Positions 720-5,071 of a DNA stretch of 5,071 nt are shown here, piece after piece. The position numbers were made by a program, and so were the translations under genes. This DNA is from a virus. Taxonomy: Duplodnaviria; Heunggongvirae; Uroviricota; Caudoviricetes. Within the stretch, counting starts at the first letter, position 1. Each line of letters opens with the position of its first letter. The notes under the pieces were generated by a model, which worked only from the letters and a program-made list of their open reading frames with translations, was not told the origin of the DNA and searched no databases. The DNA lies in the IMG/VR virus record IMGVR_UViG_2563366839_000004. One strand, 5' to 3'.

Positions 720-720
720 T

Positions 721-731
721 CCTCACGCTCC
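721..731 (-). promoter_or_regulatory. Putative ribosome-binding site for J
   Basis: Minus-strand sequence upstream of the J ATG reads GGAGCGTGAGGA-ATG; GGAG lies 8 nt and GAGG 1 nt from the start codon. Confidence 0.5.
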
Positions 732-741
732 ATAAACGACA

Positions 742-761
742 AAACCGCCCGCAGGCGGTTT
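742..761 (-). other. Perfect inverted repeat (8-bp stem, 4-nt loop) in the I-J intergenic spacer; possible RNA stem-loop (stability element, weak terminator or attenuator)
   Basis: Plus strand aaaccgcc-cgca-ggcggttt (742..761); the two arms are exact reverse complements. On the sense (minus) strand the stem is followed by UUUUGUCGUUUAUG, an interrupted U-rich tract. Confidence 0.45.
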
Positions 762-779
762 CACATAAAACGTTTTTCA

Positions 780-1451
780 TCAACGACCAATCACCACAAC
801 CTGACCACCGTCCCCCTCGTCTGCCGTGCTGATCTCCTGAGAAGCCACCCGCGACCCCACGCGCATTTCACCGTACAGAACAGGCAGAACATTGCCCTGG
901 GCAACCATGTTATCCAGTGAGGAGAAATAGGTGTTCTGCTTACCGTTATCCGTTGTCTGTGTACGGGGAGTTCTGGCTTTCGGTGCCAGCATCTGGGCCA
1001 CACCACCGAGCACCATACTGGCACCGAGAGAAAACAGGATGCCGGTCATACCACCGGCCCCAATGGCTGCCCCCCACGCTGCAAGGGTGGCTCCGGCAGT
1101 AAAGAATGATCCGGCAATGGCGGCTGCTCCCAGGACAATCTGGAATACGCCACCTGACTTGGCCCCGGCGACTCTGGGAACAATATGAATCACAGCGCCA
1201 TCAGGCAGAGTCTCATGTAACTGCGCCGTTAACCCGGACGTGCTGACGTCCCGCCCGGCAATCCGTACCTGATACCAGCCGTCGCTCAGTTTCTGACGAA
1301 ACGCCGGGATCTGCATGGCCAGCGCCCGGATGGCTTCGGCCCCCGTTTTCACACGCAGATCGATGCGGCGGCCAAATCGTTGTAAATCCCCGTAAAGGCA
1401 GATGCGTGCCATGCCTGGTGACGCCAGAGGGAGTGTGTGCGTCGCTGCCAT
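780..1451 (-). CDS. I: Tail tip assembly protein I (223 aa)
   Basis: Complete ORF, ATG at 1451 and TGA at 780..782. I recognise the translation (MAATHTLPLASPGMARICLYGD...QVVVIGR) as lambda gpI. AGAGG-type SD about 11 nt upstream. Overlaps the 3' end of K by 103 nt in a different frame. Confidence 0.9.
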   Translation of the reverse strand: MAATHTLPLASPGMARICLYGDLQRFGRRIDLRVKTGAEAIRALAMQIPAFRQKLSDGWYQVRIAGRDVSTSGLTAQLHETLPDGAVIHIVPRVAGAKSGGVFQIVLGAAAIAGSFFTAGATLAAWGAAIGAGGMTGILFSLGASMVLGGVAQMLAPKARTPRTQTTDNGKQNTYFSSLDNMVAQGNVLPVLYGEMRVGSRVASQEISTADEGDGGQVVVIGR

Positions 1452-2092
1452 TTGTCGGTGTACCTCTCTCGTTTACTCAGTTGTTCAGGAATATGGTGCA
1501 GCAGCTCACCGTCACCACAGTAAATGGCGGCATGATTCGGCACCGATGAACCAAAACAGCACAGCAGCACATCGCCCGGCTGCGCCGCTGACAACGGCAT
1601 CTGATACAGCCCTGTGGCCTCCAGATTATCCAGATAGAGATTCTGGCCGTGACGCCACCAGTCATCCTCACGATGAAAATCCGGCATCTCAATCCCCGCC
1701 AGATGGTAAGCATCCCGGAACAGCGTGTAACAGTCCGTCACACCGTGCTCAAAGCGCCGCCCGGTGAGATGCGGCACACAGCGGAACTTATGAATCGTCC
1801 CCCGGCAGACCAGCCACCAAGGCAAATCACTCTGCACCTGCAGCCGCCGGTCGGCCTCACTCAGCCAGGGCAGACCACCGGGGTGGCTGTGGACCAGCGC
1901 CACAATCTCACCCTGCATCTCTGCCTGCAGCCAGTCTTCCGGCGACATACGGAAATACGCCTCCGGCTCACCGGAGATATTCACGCAGGGAAAATATCTT
2001 TCCCCCTCCGGTGTTCTCACCACGAAGCCGCACGACTCCGCTGGCGCACATCGCCGGGCGTGCGCCAGAATCGCTGATTCTGTCTCTGTCAT
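1349..2092 (-). CDS. K: Tail tip assembly protein K (full ORF 247 aa), with JAMM/MPN+ and NlpC/P60-like peptidase motifs; alternative internal start at 1948 would give 199 aa
   Basis: ORF from ATG at 2092 (5 nt after the L stop, no SD) to the stop at 1349. Contains HSHPGGLPWLSEAD (H-x-H-x7-S-x2-D JAMM motif, residues 68-81) with an upstream E-S-C-G (E19), and downstream DCYTLF (Cys121) plus NHAAIYCGDGELLHH (His187, His199/200), typical of NlpC/P60 Cys/His peptidases. An internal in-frame ATG at 1948 (Met49) is preceded by GGAGG (1960..1964) with an 11-nt spacer. Confidence 0.88.
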   Translation of the reverse strand: MTETESAILAHARRCAPAESCGFVVRTPEGERYFPCVNISGEPEAYFRMSPEDWLQAEMQGEIVALVHSHPGGLPWLSEADRRLQVQSDLPWWLVCRGTIHKFRCVPHLTGRRFEHGVTDCYTLFRDAYHLAGIEMPDFHREDDWWRHGQNLYLDNLEATGLYQMPLSAAQPGDVLLCCFGSSVPNHAAIYCGDGELLHHIPEQLSKRERYTDKWQRRTHSLWRHQAWHASAFTGIYNDLAAASICV

Positions 2093-2097
2093 GGGAT

Positions 2098-2796
2098 TTA
2101 CTGCGAAAGTTTGTTAATGGAAAGGAAGCCGCCAAAGTTGCCGACATTATTGCGGAACTTACAACCGCTCAGGCATTTGCTGCATTTATCCTTCGTGATA
2201 TCGGACGTTGGCTGGTCATATTCATCCGCGACTGCCGGACCGTGATAACCGCACTCATCACCGCGATAGGTCCAGGTGCAGGTGTTGGCCAGCATGATAC
2301 GTCCCGGAAAAACAGCGCCATCCGTTTCCGTCGGCGTGGACAGTACAAAGGAGGCACTCACCGCGCTCAGTTCGCTGCACTGCTCGATGCGCCAGCGGCT
2401 GATCACCTCCTGCTCCGGATCGGCGTCACTGTTTCCGTTGACGAAGTTCACCGCATCCAGAAAACGGGCGTAAACCTTACGCCGGACCACCGTTCCGCCG
2501 ACCAGACTCTGCATATCTTCCGCCATCCCGGTGACCATACCGTACAGGTTAGAAACCGTCAGCGTGGGGCGCGTACTGGTGCCTTTGCCATTCAGTTCAA
2601 AACCGCTCCCCTGAATGGGATACGGCTGATACTGTCGCCCCTGCCAGGTGACCGGCTCACCTTTTTCGTTCTGCTCATTACAGAAAAAATAACGTTCTCC
2701 ACCGACCTCTGTCAGGTCGATTTCCCAGAGCACCACGCTGGCCGACTGCTCCGCACGGGTGCATTCATTCAGTGTTTCCTGCCGGATATCCTGCAT
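2098..2796 (-). CDS. L: Tail tip assembly protein L (232 aa), with C-terminal cysteine cluster
   Basis: Complete ORF, ATG at 2796 overlapping the M stop (TGATG) and TAA at 2098..2100. I recognise the translation (MQDIRQETLNECTRAEQSAS...FLSINKLSQ) as lambda gpL. C-terminal cysteines C173, C182, C205, C208, C212. AGGTGG SD 7 nt upstream. Confidence 0.9.
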   Translation of the reverse strand: MQDIRQETLNECTRAEQSASVVLWEIDLTEVGGERYFFCNEQNEKGEPVTWQGRQYQPYPIQGSGFELNGKGTSTRPTLTVSNLYGMVTGMAEDMQSLVGGTVVRRKVYARFLDAVNFVNGNSDADPEQEVISRWRIEQCSELSAVSASFVLSTPTETDGAVFPGRIMLANTCTWTYRGDECGYHGPAVADEYDQPTSDITKDKCSKCLSGCKFRNNVGNFGGFLSINKLSQ

Positions 2797-3125
2797 CAGT
2801 TCACCACCTGTTCAAACTCTGCGCTGAACTCAACACGCAACATACTGACCCGCGACGACCATTTTGCGCAGGTCACCTTTATCTGCCGCCACTCATAAGG
2901 CGGCGTCCACAGAAAGGATTTCCAGCCCCCGTGCTCTTCCAGAAACGACTCCAGTACCGTGGCCTCCTCACGGGGGACAGAAAGCGTCACGCTGTACGTT
3001 TTCAGGTTGGCATTCAGCCCGGCAGGCGCTCGCTGAGAATAGCCATCACCAAAGCGCACCTTTCTTACAGAAGGGACCGAAGCCACATCCATACCGGGTT
3101 TCACTTTCCAGCGGAAGGTCTTCAT
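2796..3125 (-). CDS. M: Tail tip assembly protein M (109 aa)
   Basis: Complete ORF; its ATG (3125..3123) overlaps the H stop TGA (3124..3122) as ATGA. I recognise the translation (MKTFRWKVKPGMDVASVPSV...FEQVVN) as lambda gpM. Strong GGAGG SD (3132..3136) 6 nt upstream, embedded in the last H codons. Confidence 0.9.
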   Translation of the reverse strand: MKTFRWKVKPGMDVASVPSVRKVRFGDGYSQRAPAGLNANLKTYSVTLSVPREEATVLESFLEEHGGWKSFLWTPPYEWRQIKVTCAKWSSRVSMLRVEFSAEFEQVVN

Positions 3126-5071
3126 CGTCCACCTCCGGAGAACAGGCCACCATCACGCATCTGTGTCTGAATTTCATCACGGGCACCCTTGCGGGCCATG
3201 TCATACACCGCCTTCAGAGCAGCCGGACCTATCTGACCGTTCGTGCCGTCGTTGTTAATCACCACATGGTTATTCTGCTCAAACGTCCCGGACGCCTGCG
3301 ACCGGCTGTCTGCCATGCTGCCCGGTGTACCGACATAACCGCCGGTGGCATAGCCGCGCATCAGCCGGTAAAGATTCCCCACGCCAATCCGGCTGGTTGC
3401 CTCCTTCGTGAAGACAAATTCACCACGGTGAACAATCCCCGCTGGCTCATATTTGCCGCCGGTTCCCGTAAATCCTCCGGTTGCAAAATGGAATTTCGCC
3501 GCAGCGGCCTGAATGGCTGTACCGCCTGACGCGGATGCGCCGCCACCAACAGCCCCGCCAATGGCGCTGCCGATACTCCCGACAATCCCCACCATTGCCT
3601 GCTTAAGCAGAATTTCTGTCATCATGGACAGCACGGAACGGGTGAAGCTGCGCCAGTTCTGCTCACTGCCGGTCAGCATCGCCGCCATATTCTGTGCAAT
3701 ACCATCAAAGGTCTGCGTGGCTGCACTTTTTACCTGCGACATACTGTCCGTGGCGCTCTCTTCCCACTCACTCCAGCCGGACTTCAGGCCTGCCATCCAG
3801 CTCCCGCGAAGCTGGTCTTCAGCCGCCCAGGTCTTTTTCTGCTCTGACATGACGTTATTCAGCGCCAGCGGATTATCGCCATACTGTTCCTTCAGGCGCT
3901 GTTCCGTGGCTTCCCGTTCTGCCTGCCGGTCAGTCAGCCCCCGGCTTTTCGCATCAATGGCGGCCCGTTTTGCCCGTTGCTGCTGTGCGAATTTATCCGC
4001 CTGCTGCGCCAGCGCGTTCAGGCGCTCCTGATACGTAACCTTGTCGCCAAGTGCAGCCAGCTGGCGTTTGTACTCCAGCGTCTCATCTTTATGCGCCAGC
4101 AGGGATTTCTCCTGTGCAGACAGCTGGCGACGTTGCGCCGCCTCCTCCAGTACCGCAAACTGGCTCTCCGCCTTCCACAAATCCCGGCGCTGCTGGCTGA
4201 TTTTCTCATTCGCTCCGGCATGCTTCTCCAGCGTCCGGAGTTCAGCCTGAAGCGTCAGCAGGGCAGCATGAGCACTGTCTTCCTGACGATCGCCCGCAGA
4301 CACCTTCACGCCGGACTGTTTCGGCTTTTTCAGCGTCGCTTCATAATCCTTTTTCGCCGCCGCCATCAGCGTGTTGTAATCCGCCTGCAGGATTTTCCCG
4401 TCTTTCAGTGCCTTGTTCAGTTCTTCCTGACGGGCGGTATATTTCTCCAGCGGCGTCTGCAGCCGTTCGTAAGCCTTCTGCGCCTCTTCGGTATATTTCA
4501 GCCGTGACGCTTCGGTATCGCTCTGCTGCTGCGCATTTTTGTCCTGTTGAGTCTGCTGCTCAGCCTTCTTTCGGGCGGCTTCAAGCGCAAGACGGGCCTT
4601 TTCACGATCATCCCAGTAACGCGCCCGCGCTTCATCGTTAACAAAATAATCATCCTTGCGCAGATTCCAGATGTCGTCTGCTTTCTTAAACGCAGCCTCT
4701 GCCTTAATCAGCATCTCCTGCGCGGTATCAGGACGACCAATATCCAGCACCGCATCCCACATGGATTTGAATGCCCGCGCAGTCCTGTCTGCCCAGGTCT
4801 CCAGCGTGCCCATGTTCTCTTTCAGGCGGCGGGTCTGGTCATCAAACCCTTTCGTTGCGGCCTCGTTCGCCGCCTGCAATGCCCCGGCTTCATCGCCGGA
4901 ACGCTGCAACTGAGCAACATACGCAATCTGCTCCGCCGTCACGTTATGGAACTGACGTGCCATCGCTGTCAGTCCCGACGTCGGGTCTGTGGTCAGCTTC
5001 CCGAAGGCTTCAGCGACCTTGTCCACCTCCACGCCGGATGCAGAGGAGAAACGCGCCACACTCTGGCTGAT
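3122..5071 (-). CDS. H: Tail tape measure protein H, C-terminal 649 codons; partial, reading frame open to the right window edge
   Basis: Reading frame is open from the window edge (codons ISQS precede the GTG at 5059 that the track reports as M) to TGA at 3122..3124. Long Ala/Gln/Glu/Lys/Arg-rich predicted coiled-coil region, a Gly-rich hydrophobic segment (MVGIVGSIGSAIGGAVGGGASASGGTAIQAAAA), and C-terminus ...MRDGGLFSGGGR. Recognised as lambda gpH. Confidence 0.9.
   Translation of the reverse strand: MSQSVARFSSASGVEVDKVAEAFGKLTTDPTSGLTAMARQFHNVTAEQIAYVAQLQRSGDEAGALQAANEAATKGFDDQTRRLKENMGTLETWADRTARAFKSMWDAVLDIGRPDTAQEMLIKAEAAFKKADDIWNLRKDDYFVNDEARARYWDDREKARLALEAARKKAEQQTQQDKNAQQQSDTEASRLKYTEEAQKAYERLQTPLEKYTARQEELNKALKDGKILQADYNTLMAAAKKDYEATLKKPKQSGVKVSAGDRQEDSAHAALLTLQAELRTLEKHAGANEKISQQRRDLWKAESQFAVLEEAAQRRQLSAQEKSLLAHKDETLEYKRQLAALGDKVTYQERLNALAQQADKFAQQQRAKRAAIDAKSRGLTDRQAEREATEQRLKEQYGDNPLALNNVMSEQKKTWAAEDQLRGSWMAGLKSGWSEWEESATDSMSQVKSAATQTFDGIAQNMAAMLTGSEQNWRSFTRSVLSMMTEILLKQAMVGIVGSIGSAIGGAVGGGASASGGTAIQAAAAKFHFATGGFTGTGGKYEPAGIVHRGEFVFTKEATSRIGVGNLYRLMRGYATGGYVGTPGSMADSRSQASGTFEQNNHVVINNDGTNGQIGPAALKAVYDMARKGARDEIQTQMRDGGLFSGGGR
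3132..3136 (-). promoter_or_regulatory. Ribosome-binding site for M (GGAGG) inside the H 3' end
   Basis: Minus strand GGAGGTGGACG-ATG; 6-nt spacer to the M start codon. Confidence 0.6.

Follow-up and report, generated by a model that had tools for sequence, protein, structure and literature searches.

A ubiquitin-like domain in the tail tip protein gpI of a lambda-type phage and its probable removal by the JAMM peptidase gpK

Related ubiquitin-like and tail tip systems

A C-terminal Gly is the usual residue after which JAMM enzymes cut, and ubiquitin fused to ribosomal proteins is a well-established eukaryotic ubiquitin-fusion precursor. Another eukaryotic protein, SDE2, carries an N-terminal UBL that is reported to be cut by USP5 (PMC13572447). 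The likeness of the lambda tail tip protein gpI to such precursors is one of analogy and not of family membership: the enzymes are cysteine USPs in the eukaryotic cases whereas a JAMM metalloprotease is concerned here, and the cargo is unrelated.

Prokaryotic operons that pair a JAB/JAMM peptidase with a ubiquitin-like (Ubl) protein were catalogued by Iyer, Burroughs and Aravind in 2006, who predicted JAB cleavage at the C-terminal glycine of the Ubl (PMC1779556); a preliminary description of the DNA considered here referred, correctly, to this published prediction. Like the peptidases of the prokaryotic pairs and the eukaryotic enzymes Rpn11, CSN5, and AMSH, gpK has the full E...HxH-x7-S-xx-D motif, and it is encoded beside its presumed Ubl substrate, as in the catalogued operons. 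It differs from these relatives in having a second peptidase domain, NlpC/P60, on the same chain, and in that its presumed target is a normal peptide bond within a precursor and not an isopeptide bond.

Several structures of the lambda tail include gpI. In virions it is visible only from residue 135 (PMC10721106) or 134 (PMC12617516), and its second helix forms a tripod around residues 818-842/849 of gpH. Its hydrophobic helices occupy the tip lumen around gpH in the closed tail and are gone from the density after LamB binding (PMC10721106, PMC12617516, PMC11101478); the first of them, helix H1, is resolved in the closed tail and lost on opening (PMC11101478). Insertion of the gpI helices into the membrane is a proposal of the same tail structure papers (PMC10721106, PMC12617516, PMC11101478).

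Homologues with the same architecture are known from the F-pyocin, in which the tip plug PA0640 accompanies the gpK homologue PA0639, and from phage T1 (gp34); the chains 25vf_9 and 9l9p_A align with gpI across the Ubl domain, the junction, and the hydrophobic helices. [quoted passage not shown] The junctions differ: the pyocin protein has GSKQSG, which lacks a GG pair, and T1 has GSKTGG. When recombinant PA0640 is produced by itself in E. coli, host proteases trim off the N-terminal region, so strict dependence on K for removal of the N-domain need not hold in all systems; the pyocin authors named no protease for the removal. The pb3 plug domain of phage T5 works like gpI at the virion level: it is trimeric, shuts the tube, and has been proposed to reach the outer membrane when it opens (PMC10721106). 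In T5, however, the plug is inserted into the hub protein and has neither a gene of its own nor a Ubl domain or JAB partner.

Domains of gpI and gpK

The window, meaning the whole stretch of 5,071 nucleotides that was analysed, is a lambda-type tail region with the gene order H-M-L-K-I-J on the minus strand and 97.7% identity to lambda; its features are given in Table 1. The I ORF aligns over residues 1-223 with lambda gpI chains (8iyk_I and others) and differs from them at four positions only (M46, I48, T162, and A203), none of them near the junction or at conserved positions, and its coordinates agree with the annotation in lambda records. The segment singled out in the preliminary description, 984-1412 (-), is exactly residues 14-156 of this ORF. 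The protein is that of the lambda gpI or "TAPI" family (PF06805; 8IYK, 8IYL, 8K35, 8XCG, 9E7M), and its gene likewise lies between K and J and overlaps K to the same extent. The TAPI architecture of a Ubl domain, a Gly-rich hydrophobic linker, and a C-terminal "TAPI-C" domain is present, and diverged I homologues carry all three parts. The alignments of most diverged homologues start with their own residues 1-3 at query residues 14-17, and a 210-residue form of I that starts at Met14 is also among database annotations (P0012). The ATG at 1451 has GAGG 10 nt upstream; no good Shine-Dalgarno sequence was seen before Met14.

Table 1. Positions of gene I, gene K, and their parts in the window
Feature	Position	Strand	Basis
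Gene K, full 247-aa ORF (JAB + NlpC/P60)	1349..2092	(-)	ORF + Pfam
gpK catalytic Glu19	2036-2038	(-)	
gpK residues 68-81, JAMM zinc-site motif HSHPGGLPWLSEAD	1850..1891	(-)	Regex match
gpK residues 111-224, NlpC/P60 (papain-like) peptidase domain	1421..1762	(-)	Pfam PF00877
K/I overlap, different reading frames (103 nt to first I ATG, 64 nt to Met14)	1349..1451	(-)	
Gene I (tail tip assembly/insertion/plug protein gpI), 223 aa, stop codon included	780..1451	(-)	ORF + PDB chain match
gpI residues 1-13, N-terminal extension specific to lambda-like phages, before conserved start Met14	1413..1451	(-)	
gpI residues 14-97, ubiquitin-like beta-grasp domain, MoaD/ThiS/SAMP type	1161..1412	(-)	Pfam, AF2, Foldseek
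gpI residues 96-101 (G-A-K-S-G-G), junction of Ubl domain and structural part, probable cleavage window	1149..1166	(-)	
gpI residues 102-129, hydrophobic Gly/Ala-rich helix H1	1065..1148	(-)	AF2 helix 100-129
gpI second helix	987..1043	(-)	AF2 helix 137-155
gpI residues 157-223, plug (159-175) + beta-strands inserting between gpJ hub domains	783..983	(-)	PDB 8iyk, 8iyl, 8k35, 8xcg, 9e7m

The N-domain of gpI matches the Pfam family PF06805 Lambda_tail_I over model positions 2-83 of 83 (E=5.6e-28; 97.6 bits, cut-off 23.8). Its AF2 model has pLDDT values of 93-98 at residues 11-90 and above 93 through residue 95, with strands at residues 13-19, 29-34, 59-64, and 87-93 and helices at residues 21-26, 37-47, 49-57, and 74-78. 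The top Foldseek matches in the PDB are SAMP1, MoaD, CysO, Urm1, ubiquitin, and SUMO (E values down to 3e-4, target TM-scores of ~0.7, probability 1.00), and virtually every one of the best 50 matches listed is a Ubl protein, with SAMP1, MoaD, and CysO at the head. The ubiquitin-like character that the preliminary description had read from the sequence, with structure prediction suggested as a check, is thereby borne out. An identity of the N-domain as an enzyme was rejected, the domain being a Ubl beta-grasp with enzyme-like matches absent from the Pfam and Foldseek results. Also set aside was P0181, a repeat protein of 2,783 residues with 23 short matches, whose similarity to I lies only around residues 10-45.

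The fold is common to the N-domain and the carriers and modifiers MoaD, ThiS, SAMP1, CysO, and Urm1, and the residues P92-x-V-x-G96-A97 that follow the last strand line up with P-P-V-T-G-G of MoaD; the sequence similarity to MoaD is marginal (hhalign E=0.006), and gpI has Ala opposite the terminal Gly. Unlike the free-standing carriers, the gpI domain is made in cis, on one chain with a structural protein, and would gain a free end only through cleavage. Because 126 further residues follow it, in place of a free C-terminus of the carrier type, and because the six genes H, M, L, K, I, and J of the window include no E1-like adenylating enzyme, the domain is classed as a Ubl fold and not as a carrier of the ThiS/MoaD type. 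The proposal that the released Ubl is not discarded but serves as a modifier or sulfur carrier, as ThiS, MoaD, and SAMP do, would draw on the sulfur carriers and modifiers among its closest structural relatives (SAMP1, MoaD, and CysO), on the possible thiolation raised by Iyer et al. (PMC1779556), and on the 4Fe-4S cluster of the neighboring tip protein gpL (PMC10721106). Such a role is nonetheless improbable in the extreme, given the missing E1-like gene in the window, the Ala or Ser that most family members have at the position of the MoaD terminal Gly, and the fact that neither a target nor a conjugate was found in the literature consulted.

Residues 102-156 were described at the outset as Gly/Ala-rich, hydrophobic, and possibly membrane-spanning, and the analysis agrees. 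They contain 45% Gly+Ala and no charged residues; the uncharged run extends over residues 99-157 (59 residues), a length that 10,000 shuffles of the sequence never reached. Kyte-Doolittle hydropathy in a 19-residue window has a maximum of 1.78, where the usual transmembrane threshold is 1.6, and AF2 predicts two helices (Table 1), as do published TMHMM predictions (PMC7291167, PMC11101478). Residues 102-155 thereby have the features of a transmembrane hairpin, namely two uncharged helices of at least ~20 residues and hydropathy above the transmembrane threshold. Glycines within both helices are invariant among homologues (G108 in H1; G143 and G150 in the second helix). The AF2 monomer has low confidence at residues 157-223, as expected, because the strands there pair with gpJ.

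The peptidase gpK has a Prok-JAB Pfam match at residues 4-104 that covers the model nearly end to end (53 bits, cut-off 25), and residues 7-105 can be aligned to the JAB protein 2kks. Lambda records annotate a shorter K, 1349-1948 only (199 aa), and this standard annotation leaves out 48 residues at the start of the JAB domain, the catalytic Glu among them; upstream ORFs in diverged loci have median lengths of 241-247 aa. The JAMM residues are E19 and H68-S-H70-x7-S78-x2-D81, and none of E19, H68, S69, H70, S78, and D81 varies among 30 diverged K sequences. The second domain matches PF00877 NLPC_P60 (E=1.1e-12; 48.3 bits, cut-off 23), and its residues C121, H187, H199, and H200 are likewise invariant.

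Two peptidase domains raise the question of which one acts on gpI. If the NlpC/P60 domain, or a host protease, were to remove the N-domain, the JAB domain would merely bind the Ubl fold; C121, H187, and H199 are conserved just as strictly as the JAMM residues, and host proteases do trim PA0640 expressed alone in E. coli. This division of labor is unlikely. Invariance of the JAMM catalytic residues argues for an active enzyme over a binding module, the JAB-Ubl pairing recurs across prokaryotic systems (PMC1779556), and a conference summary credits the cut to gpK, which it describes by its deubiquitinating domain (PMC12908700). We infer that the JAB domain of gpK makes the cut.

The junction and the fate of the N-domain

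The Ser-Gly-Gly reported in the preliminary description is present at residues 99-101, and cleavage directly after Gly101 had been proposed on its account. The exact site is not secured. Across the family, the conserved glycine is G96 and not the pair at 100-101: G96 is at least 90% conserved, and each of the 71 distinct junction strings, drawn from 240 viral loci, contains it. The conserved motif spans both sides of the putative cut, hP-x-h-x-G-[AS]-[KG]-x-x-G-h-[FG]-[QGN]-h-h-h-G. In the weak hhalign alignment, residues 76-96 of gpI lie on residues 60-80 of MoaD, which puts A97 at the C-terminal G81 of MoaD, a position held by Ala or Ser in most family members. In purified closed tails lambda gpI is resolved from residue 101 onward (PMC11101478), and the model of T1 gp34 begins at G92, the counterpart of lambda G101 in the alignment; if these models are correct, G101 is part of the mature fragment.

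A cut exactly after Gly101, on the model of the ubiquitin Gly-Gly C-terminus, is possible but rather doubtful. It would be consistent with the SGG at 99-101, with G101 as the commonest residue at its position (58 of 77 diverged sequences), with the usual preference of JAMM enzymes for a C-terminal Gly, and with the conserved [VLI]-F-Q that follows directly, as would be expected for the P' side. The GG pair varies among homologues, however, with NG, AG, SG, DG, and gaps all occurring and G96 as the near-invariant glycine; the Pfam domain ends at 97, the residue placed on the MoaD terminal G81 by the weak alignment; and both the lambda and the T1 model include the equivalent of G101. The conserved G96, the placing of A97 at the last Gly of MoaD, and the beginning of both models at G101 or its equivalent together point to a cut somewhere between A97 and G101, and not certainly after G101. 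Gly133-Gly134, suggested by virion models that begin at 133-135, was rejected as the site: it lies in an insertion that most homologues lack, and gpI is already visible from residue 101 in purified closed tails (PMC11101478).

According to the conference summary, gpK cleaves the gpI Ubl domain after gpI has joined the tip complex (PMC12908700). The preliminary description cautioned that cleavage of I by K had not been firmly demonstrated; cleavage has since been reported as shown, though in that summary alone, and a literature search found no full paper with data on K-dependent cleavage. The reading of I and K as a Ubl/JAB pair is real and was correctly made, and it is already known, from the 2006 prediction and the experimental confirmation reported at a 2025 meeting; since the pair has been described before, no new biology is added. 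What the analysis contributes in practice is the narrowing of the cleavage window to A97-G101 and the recognition of G96, rather than the GG pair, as the conserved glycine.

Mass spectrometry did not find gpK in virions (PMC10721106). The sole gpI peptide in virion mass spectrometry amounts to 9.87% coverage, a figure that the C-terminal tryptic peptide 202-223 alone would match; several good tryptic peptides of the N-domain were not reported. Because a single gpI peptide was obtained, these data support the absence of the N-domain weakly. That one peptide would also be compatible with gpI escaping cleavage and entering the virion at full length, with an N-domain too mobile for cryo-EM, and the cryo-EM papers call the N-terminal domain just "unresolved" (PMC10721106, PMC12617516, PMC11101478). 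Intact gpI in virions is nevertheless very unlikely: the peptide that was detected is C-terminal although good N-domain peptides exist, N-terminal peptides of the F-pyocin homologue occur in stalled precursors only, cleavage is reported in the conference summary (PMC12908700), and the lumen that holds gpH would presumably need room for three 10-kDa domains.

The following account of gpI as a precursor cleaved by gpK is, taken as a whole, very probably correct. The product of gene I would be the precursor of the tail tip "plug" and consist of four parts: a Ubl domain of the MoaD/SAMP type (residues 14-97), a junction (G96-A-K-S-G-G101), two hydrophobic helices (~101-130 and 137-155), and a C-terminal plug and beta-strand region. 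gpK would act in assembly without becoming part of the virion, its JAB/JAMM domain being a metallopeptidase and its NlpC/P60 domain a cysteine peptidase. As the tip is assembled, gpI would join gpJ and gpL, whereupon the JAB domain of gpK would cut off the Ubl domain at the junction, between A97 and G101. Until then the Ubl domain probably serves to solubilise the strongly hydrophobic helices, and probably blocks the step that follows, docking of the tape measure and tube, so that its removal may act as a checkpoint. The mature fragment, from ~101, would stay in the tip lumen as a trimer, grip the C-terminus of the tape measure, and plug the tube; binding of gpJ to LamB would open the plug and release the two hydrophobic helices, probably into the outer membrane.

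On this account gpI/gpK would be a clean example from a bacterial virus of a Ubl domain in cis that is removed by an enzyme of the JAMM deubiquitinase type as an assembly checkpoint; the pair is relevant to the origin of ubiquitin systems and to the building of siphophage tails and F-type tailocins. It is very doubtful that the released Ubl, with its exposed small C-terminal residue, has a further role in sulfur chemistry or as a modifier, or that the NlpC/P60 domain of gpK makes another tail cut, such as that of gpH to gpH*, the catalysis of which is not known according to the Ur-lambda paper (PMC12617516).

Pairing and overlap of K and I across viral loci

The preliminary description placed a JAMM-bearing gene K next to, and overlapping, gene I; the motif is indeed intact here, and the two genes are paired both in the window and in diverged relatives. 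Diverged loci were gathered with distant sequences first, since searching with lambda first returned only lambda-like loci at at least 97% identity; an alignment of 45 sequences contained no stretch conserved enough for a locus search. A JAMM-bearing ORF of ~245 aa lies directly upstream of the I homologue in about 90% of the diverged viral loci examined (77/78, 63/72, and 70/74 in three clades). The upstream ORF has no recognisable JAMM motif in 9 of 72 and 4 of 74 diverged loci, which may be artefacts of ORF calling or contig ends.

K and I overlap or tightly abut in the diverged loci as well: the overlap is 58-64 nt in one clade and mostly 26, 4, or 1 nt in a second, in which a minority of loci have gaps of 14-44 nt. 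The two genes are probably translationally coupled. Natural K-I fusions were considered as a model and rejected: all those in the searches either begin no earlier than K Met49 or are chimeras with deletions (P0030, P0123, P0047), so none has a complete JAB domain, and they resemble artefacts of a frameshift or deletion near the K/I overlap.

Lambda tail genes in the window and their annotation

The window shares 97.7% identity with phage lambda and its close relatives over its full 5,071 bases, and all of its genes are encoded on the minus strand (see table). The stretch flagged in the preliminary description corresponds exactly to residues 14-156 of gene I, whose product matches lambda gpI in PDB 8IYK, 8IYL, 8K35 and 8XCG across all 223 residues; the four substitutions (M46, I48, T162, and A203) all lie away from the features discussed here. 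By all criteria tested, I belongs to the lambda gpI family.

Genes and sub-features of the lambda-type tail region
Feature	Coordinates	Strand	Remark
H (tape measure)		-	3' two-thirds of gene in window
H C-terminal part, Gly/Ala-rich stretch	~3480-3610	-
M	2796-3125	-
L	2098-2796	-
K	1349-2092	-	247-aa ORF
K as annotated in lambda-family records	1349-1948	-	199 aa, from Met49
K portion omitted by short annotation	1949-2092	-	48 residues
K NlpC/P60 domain	1421-1762	-	residues 111-224
I	780-1451	-	223 aa
I residues 14-156	984-1412	-
I residues 1-13	1413-1451	-
I-J spacer	720-782	-	60 nt
J	ending at 719	-	start of gene only

The annotated start of I varies: in phage records the protein has 223 aa and begins with the ATG at 1451, a 210-aa product starting at Met14 appears in many E. 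coli genome annotations (P0012, a database protein with 5,268 member sequences), and 190-aa forms begin at residue 34. The position equivalent to Met14 is the start of diverged homologues, residues 1-13 are restricted to lambda-like phages, and of the two starts the ATG at 1451 is preceded, 10 nt upstream, by the better Shine-Dalgarno sequence, GAGG. In the I-J spacer there is a strong hairpin with core stem AAACCGCC / GGCGGUUU, loop UGCG and flanking pairs that extend it, followed by a U-rich stretch; its energy of -22.8 kcal/mol (z = -3.6) was matched by 0 of 200 shuffles, and it is not among the output of a simple terminator scan.

The short form of K in lambda-family records is preceded by GGAGG 11 nt upstream of Met49. 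The ORF extends to an ATG at 2092, 5 nt past the L stop codon, and the omitted residues belong to the JAB domain and include the invariant catalytic Glu19; the JAB protein 2kks aligns to K from residue 7, and the longer form fits both the family-wide length of the upstream ORF (~241-247 aa) and the full JAB profile. The 199-aa annotation probably truncates the enzyme.

Ubiquitin-like domain of gpI and its pairing with the JAMM protein K

The N-terminal domain of I was described as resembling the ThiS/MoaD/ubiquitin β-grasp proteins. Residues 14-97 match Pfam PF06805 (Lambda_tail_I, E=5.6e-28). A homologue search with I returned 3,072 cluster representatives (E<=0.001), and 45 homologues from among them, 32-46% identical to I, formed the alignment for an AlphaFold2 model in which residues 11-90 have pLDDT 93-98. 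The model contains strands at 13-19, 29-34, 59-64, and 87-93 and N-domain helices at 21-26, 37-47, 49-57, and 74-78. Nearly all of the top Foldseek matches in the PDB were SAMP1 (2L52, 3PO0, 4HRO), MoaD (1FM0_D, 1NVI_D, 1JWB_D), CysO, Urm1, archaeal and eukaryotic ubiquitin, and SUMO, with E down to 3e-4, probability 1.00 and target-normalised TM ~0.7. The predicted structure of residues 14-97 is therefore the ubiquitin-like (Ubl) β-grasp fold, as claimed, and not a different fold; as encoded, the domain does not qualify as a free-standing, E1-activated carrier or modifier.

Among proteins brought up by the searches, P0181 (2,783 aa, repetitive) gave 23 short matches to about residues 10-45 of I through a 'GDFENLSRRMDLKV'-like repeat resembling 'GDLQRFGRRIDLRV'; it looks like a chance repeat match and not a homologue. 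Many other matches are single-member proteins in which a piece of K, L or another gene is fused in frame to I: K-I joins (P0009, P0013, P0014, P0017, P0055, P0094, P0120), JAB-I joins (P0030, P0123), an L-I join (P0047) and P0032. The joins either fall where K and I overlap or represent internal deletions. All natural K-I fusions among the matches lack a complete JAB domain, and none of the listed fusion proteins holds both a complete JAB and a complete Ubl domain; fusions around the overlap look like non-functional products of frameshifts, assembly errors or decayed prophages.

The JAMM motif reported in the adjoining gene was borne out: K carries E19 and H68-S-H70-x7-S78-x2-D81 within a Prok-JAB match (residues 4-104), followed by a papain-like NLPC_P60 match (residues 111-224), and overlaps I by 103 nt in a different frame. 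Across 240 viral loci from three clades, a JAMM-bearing ORF (median lengths 241-247 aa) ends at or overlaps the start of the I homologue in 77/78 lambda-like loci and in 63/72 and 70/74 loci of two diverged sets with I homologues that share ~35-45% identity with that of lambda. The JAMM residues E19, H68, S69, H70, S78, and D81 and the NlpC/P60 residues C121, H187, and H199/H200 are invariant in 30/30 diverged K proteins. K-I pairing is thus conserved as a family trait, rather than being a peculiarity of lambda.

The motif is absent from the upstream ORF in 13 of the 146 diverged loci that have such an ORF (within L082-L241, for example L110, L136, L142, L143, L156, L157, L162, and L166), and there the I homologue retains the G96...G101 junction. 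These ORFs could be K variants with NlpC/P60 alone, as described by Iyer et al. (PMC1779556), or artefacts of ORF calling or contig ends.

The pairing of a Ubl with a JAB protein, mentioned in the preliminary description, was indeed predicted by Iyer, Burroughs and Aravind (Genome Biology 2006; PMC1779556). In their account TAPI (the gpI type) consists of a ThiS/MoaD-like Ub domain, a glycine-rich linker and a C-terminal domain; the adjoining TAPK (the gpK type) has JAB and NlpC/P60 domains, and the JAB domain is predicted to free the Ub-like domain by a cut at its C-terminal-most glycine. The present observation arrives at that prediction anew and independently; it is already known.

Reported removal of the N-domain and probable position of the cut

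The 2006 prediction is now reported as experimentally confirmed: a summary of an October 2025 bacteriophage conference states, from work by Alan Davidson's group, that gpK cleaves off the gpI Ubl domain once gpI has joined the tip complex (PMC12908700); a full paper on K-dependent gpI cleavage was not found in the literature searched. The N-domain is seen in no lambda, Ur-lambda, T1 or F-pyocin particle (PMC10721106; PMC12617516; PMC11101478), and gpK was undetected by virion mass spectrometry (PMC10721106). N-terminal peptides of PA0640, the F-pyocin gpI homologue, are missing in mature F-pyocin but can be found in tips that stalled before the tube attached. A lambda virion proteomics table lists one gpI peptide with 9.87% coverage, a value that in an in-silico digest no peptide other than the C-terminal one, 202-223 (22 residues), gives; the same digest yields several good N-domain tryptic peptides. 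As evidence for N-domain removal the coverage is weak, though consistent. Both the removal and its K-dependence are taken here from the cited literature.

The proposed cut after Gly101 fared less well than the Ser-Gly-Gly on which it was based. That motif is present at residues 99-101, but the Gly-Gly pair is variable (G100 in 49/77 and G101 in 58/77 diverged sequences), whereas P92, G96, and G108 are near-invariant or invariant. In 71 distinct junction strings from viral loci, G96 is present in all 71, the next residue is A or S and in rare cases G or N, and positions 100-101 are GG, NG, AG, SG, DG or a gap; the F-pyocin protein has GSKQSG and T1 has GSKTGG. In a weak profile-sequence alignment (E=0.006; MoaD sequence checked against 1FM0_D), I residues 76-96 fall on E. 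coli MoaD 60-80, such that A97 corresponds to the C-terminal Gly81 of MoaD, and the Pfam domain also ends at residue 97. Ge and Wang describe closed-tail gpI as resolved "from position 101 onward" (PMC11101478), and the T1 gp34 model begins at residue 92, which aligns with lambda G101. Taken together, these observations point to a cut between A97 and G101. Should the first modelled residues be right, G101 would be part of the mature fragment, and a cut after G101 would miss the true site by one residue or more. Gly133-Gly134, close to the starts of the virion models, was rejected as a candidate; it sits in an insertion with no counterpart in most homologues.

Hydrophobic segment and proposed mechanism

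Residues 102-156 are Gly/Ala-rich and hydrophobic as described, with 45% Gly+Ala and zero charged residues; the whole uncharged run (residues 99-157, 59 long) was equalled in 0/10,000 protein shuffles, and the maximum Kyte-Doolittle 19-residue average is 1.78. AlphaFold2 places two helices here, at 100-129 and 137-155, with moderate confidence, and TMHMM predicts two membrane-spanning helices for gpI (PMC7291167; PMC11101478). [quoted passage not shown] In the LamB-bound tail gpI is visible solely from residue 167 onward, and the authors propose that both helices drop into the outer membrane after LamB binding (PMC11101478). Since the two helices vanish and are proposed to enter the outer membrane, calling the segment membrane-active is a reasonable reading, with insertion itself at the stage of a proposal.

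In the best-supported account of the mechanism as a whole, the overlapping genes K and I would be co-expressed, and the Ubl domain probably keeps the hydrophobic helices in solution and holds back the step of assembly that follows. After gpI has entered the J-L-I complex, a cut at the junction, presumably made by K's JAB domain, would detach the Ubl domain. The remaining mature fragment, which starts at about residue 101, would then bind the tape measure C-terminus and plug the tip, and LamB binding would open the plug and release the helices towards the outer membrane. Of these elements, the present analysis itself demonstrates the fold, the motifs, their conservation and the gene pairing; the solubilising and checkpoint roles, the scissile bond and the K domain that cuts are inferred. 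Eukaryotic ubiquitin-fusion precursors are alike in mechanism.

The Ur-lambda paper gives the protease for the gpH to gpH* cut as unknown (PMC12617516). The C-terminal part of H has a Gly/Ala-rich hydrophobic stretch of its own, ...MVGIVGSIGSAIGGAVGGGASASGGTAIQAAAAKF..., whose composition resembles that of the I helices, and this stretch falls where the literature puts the uncharacterised gpH to gpH* cleavage (PMC12617516).
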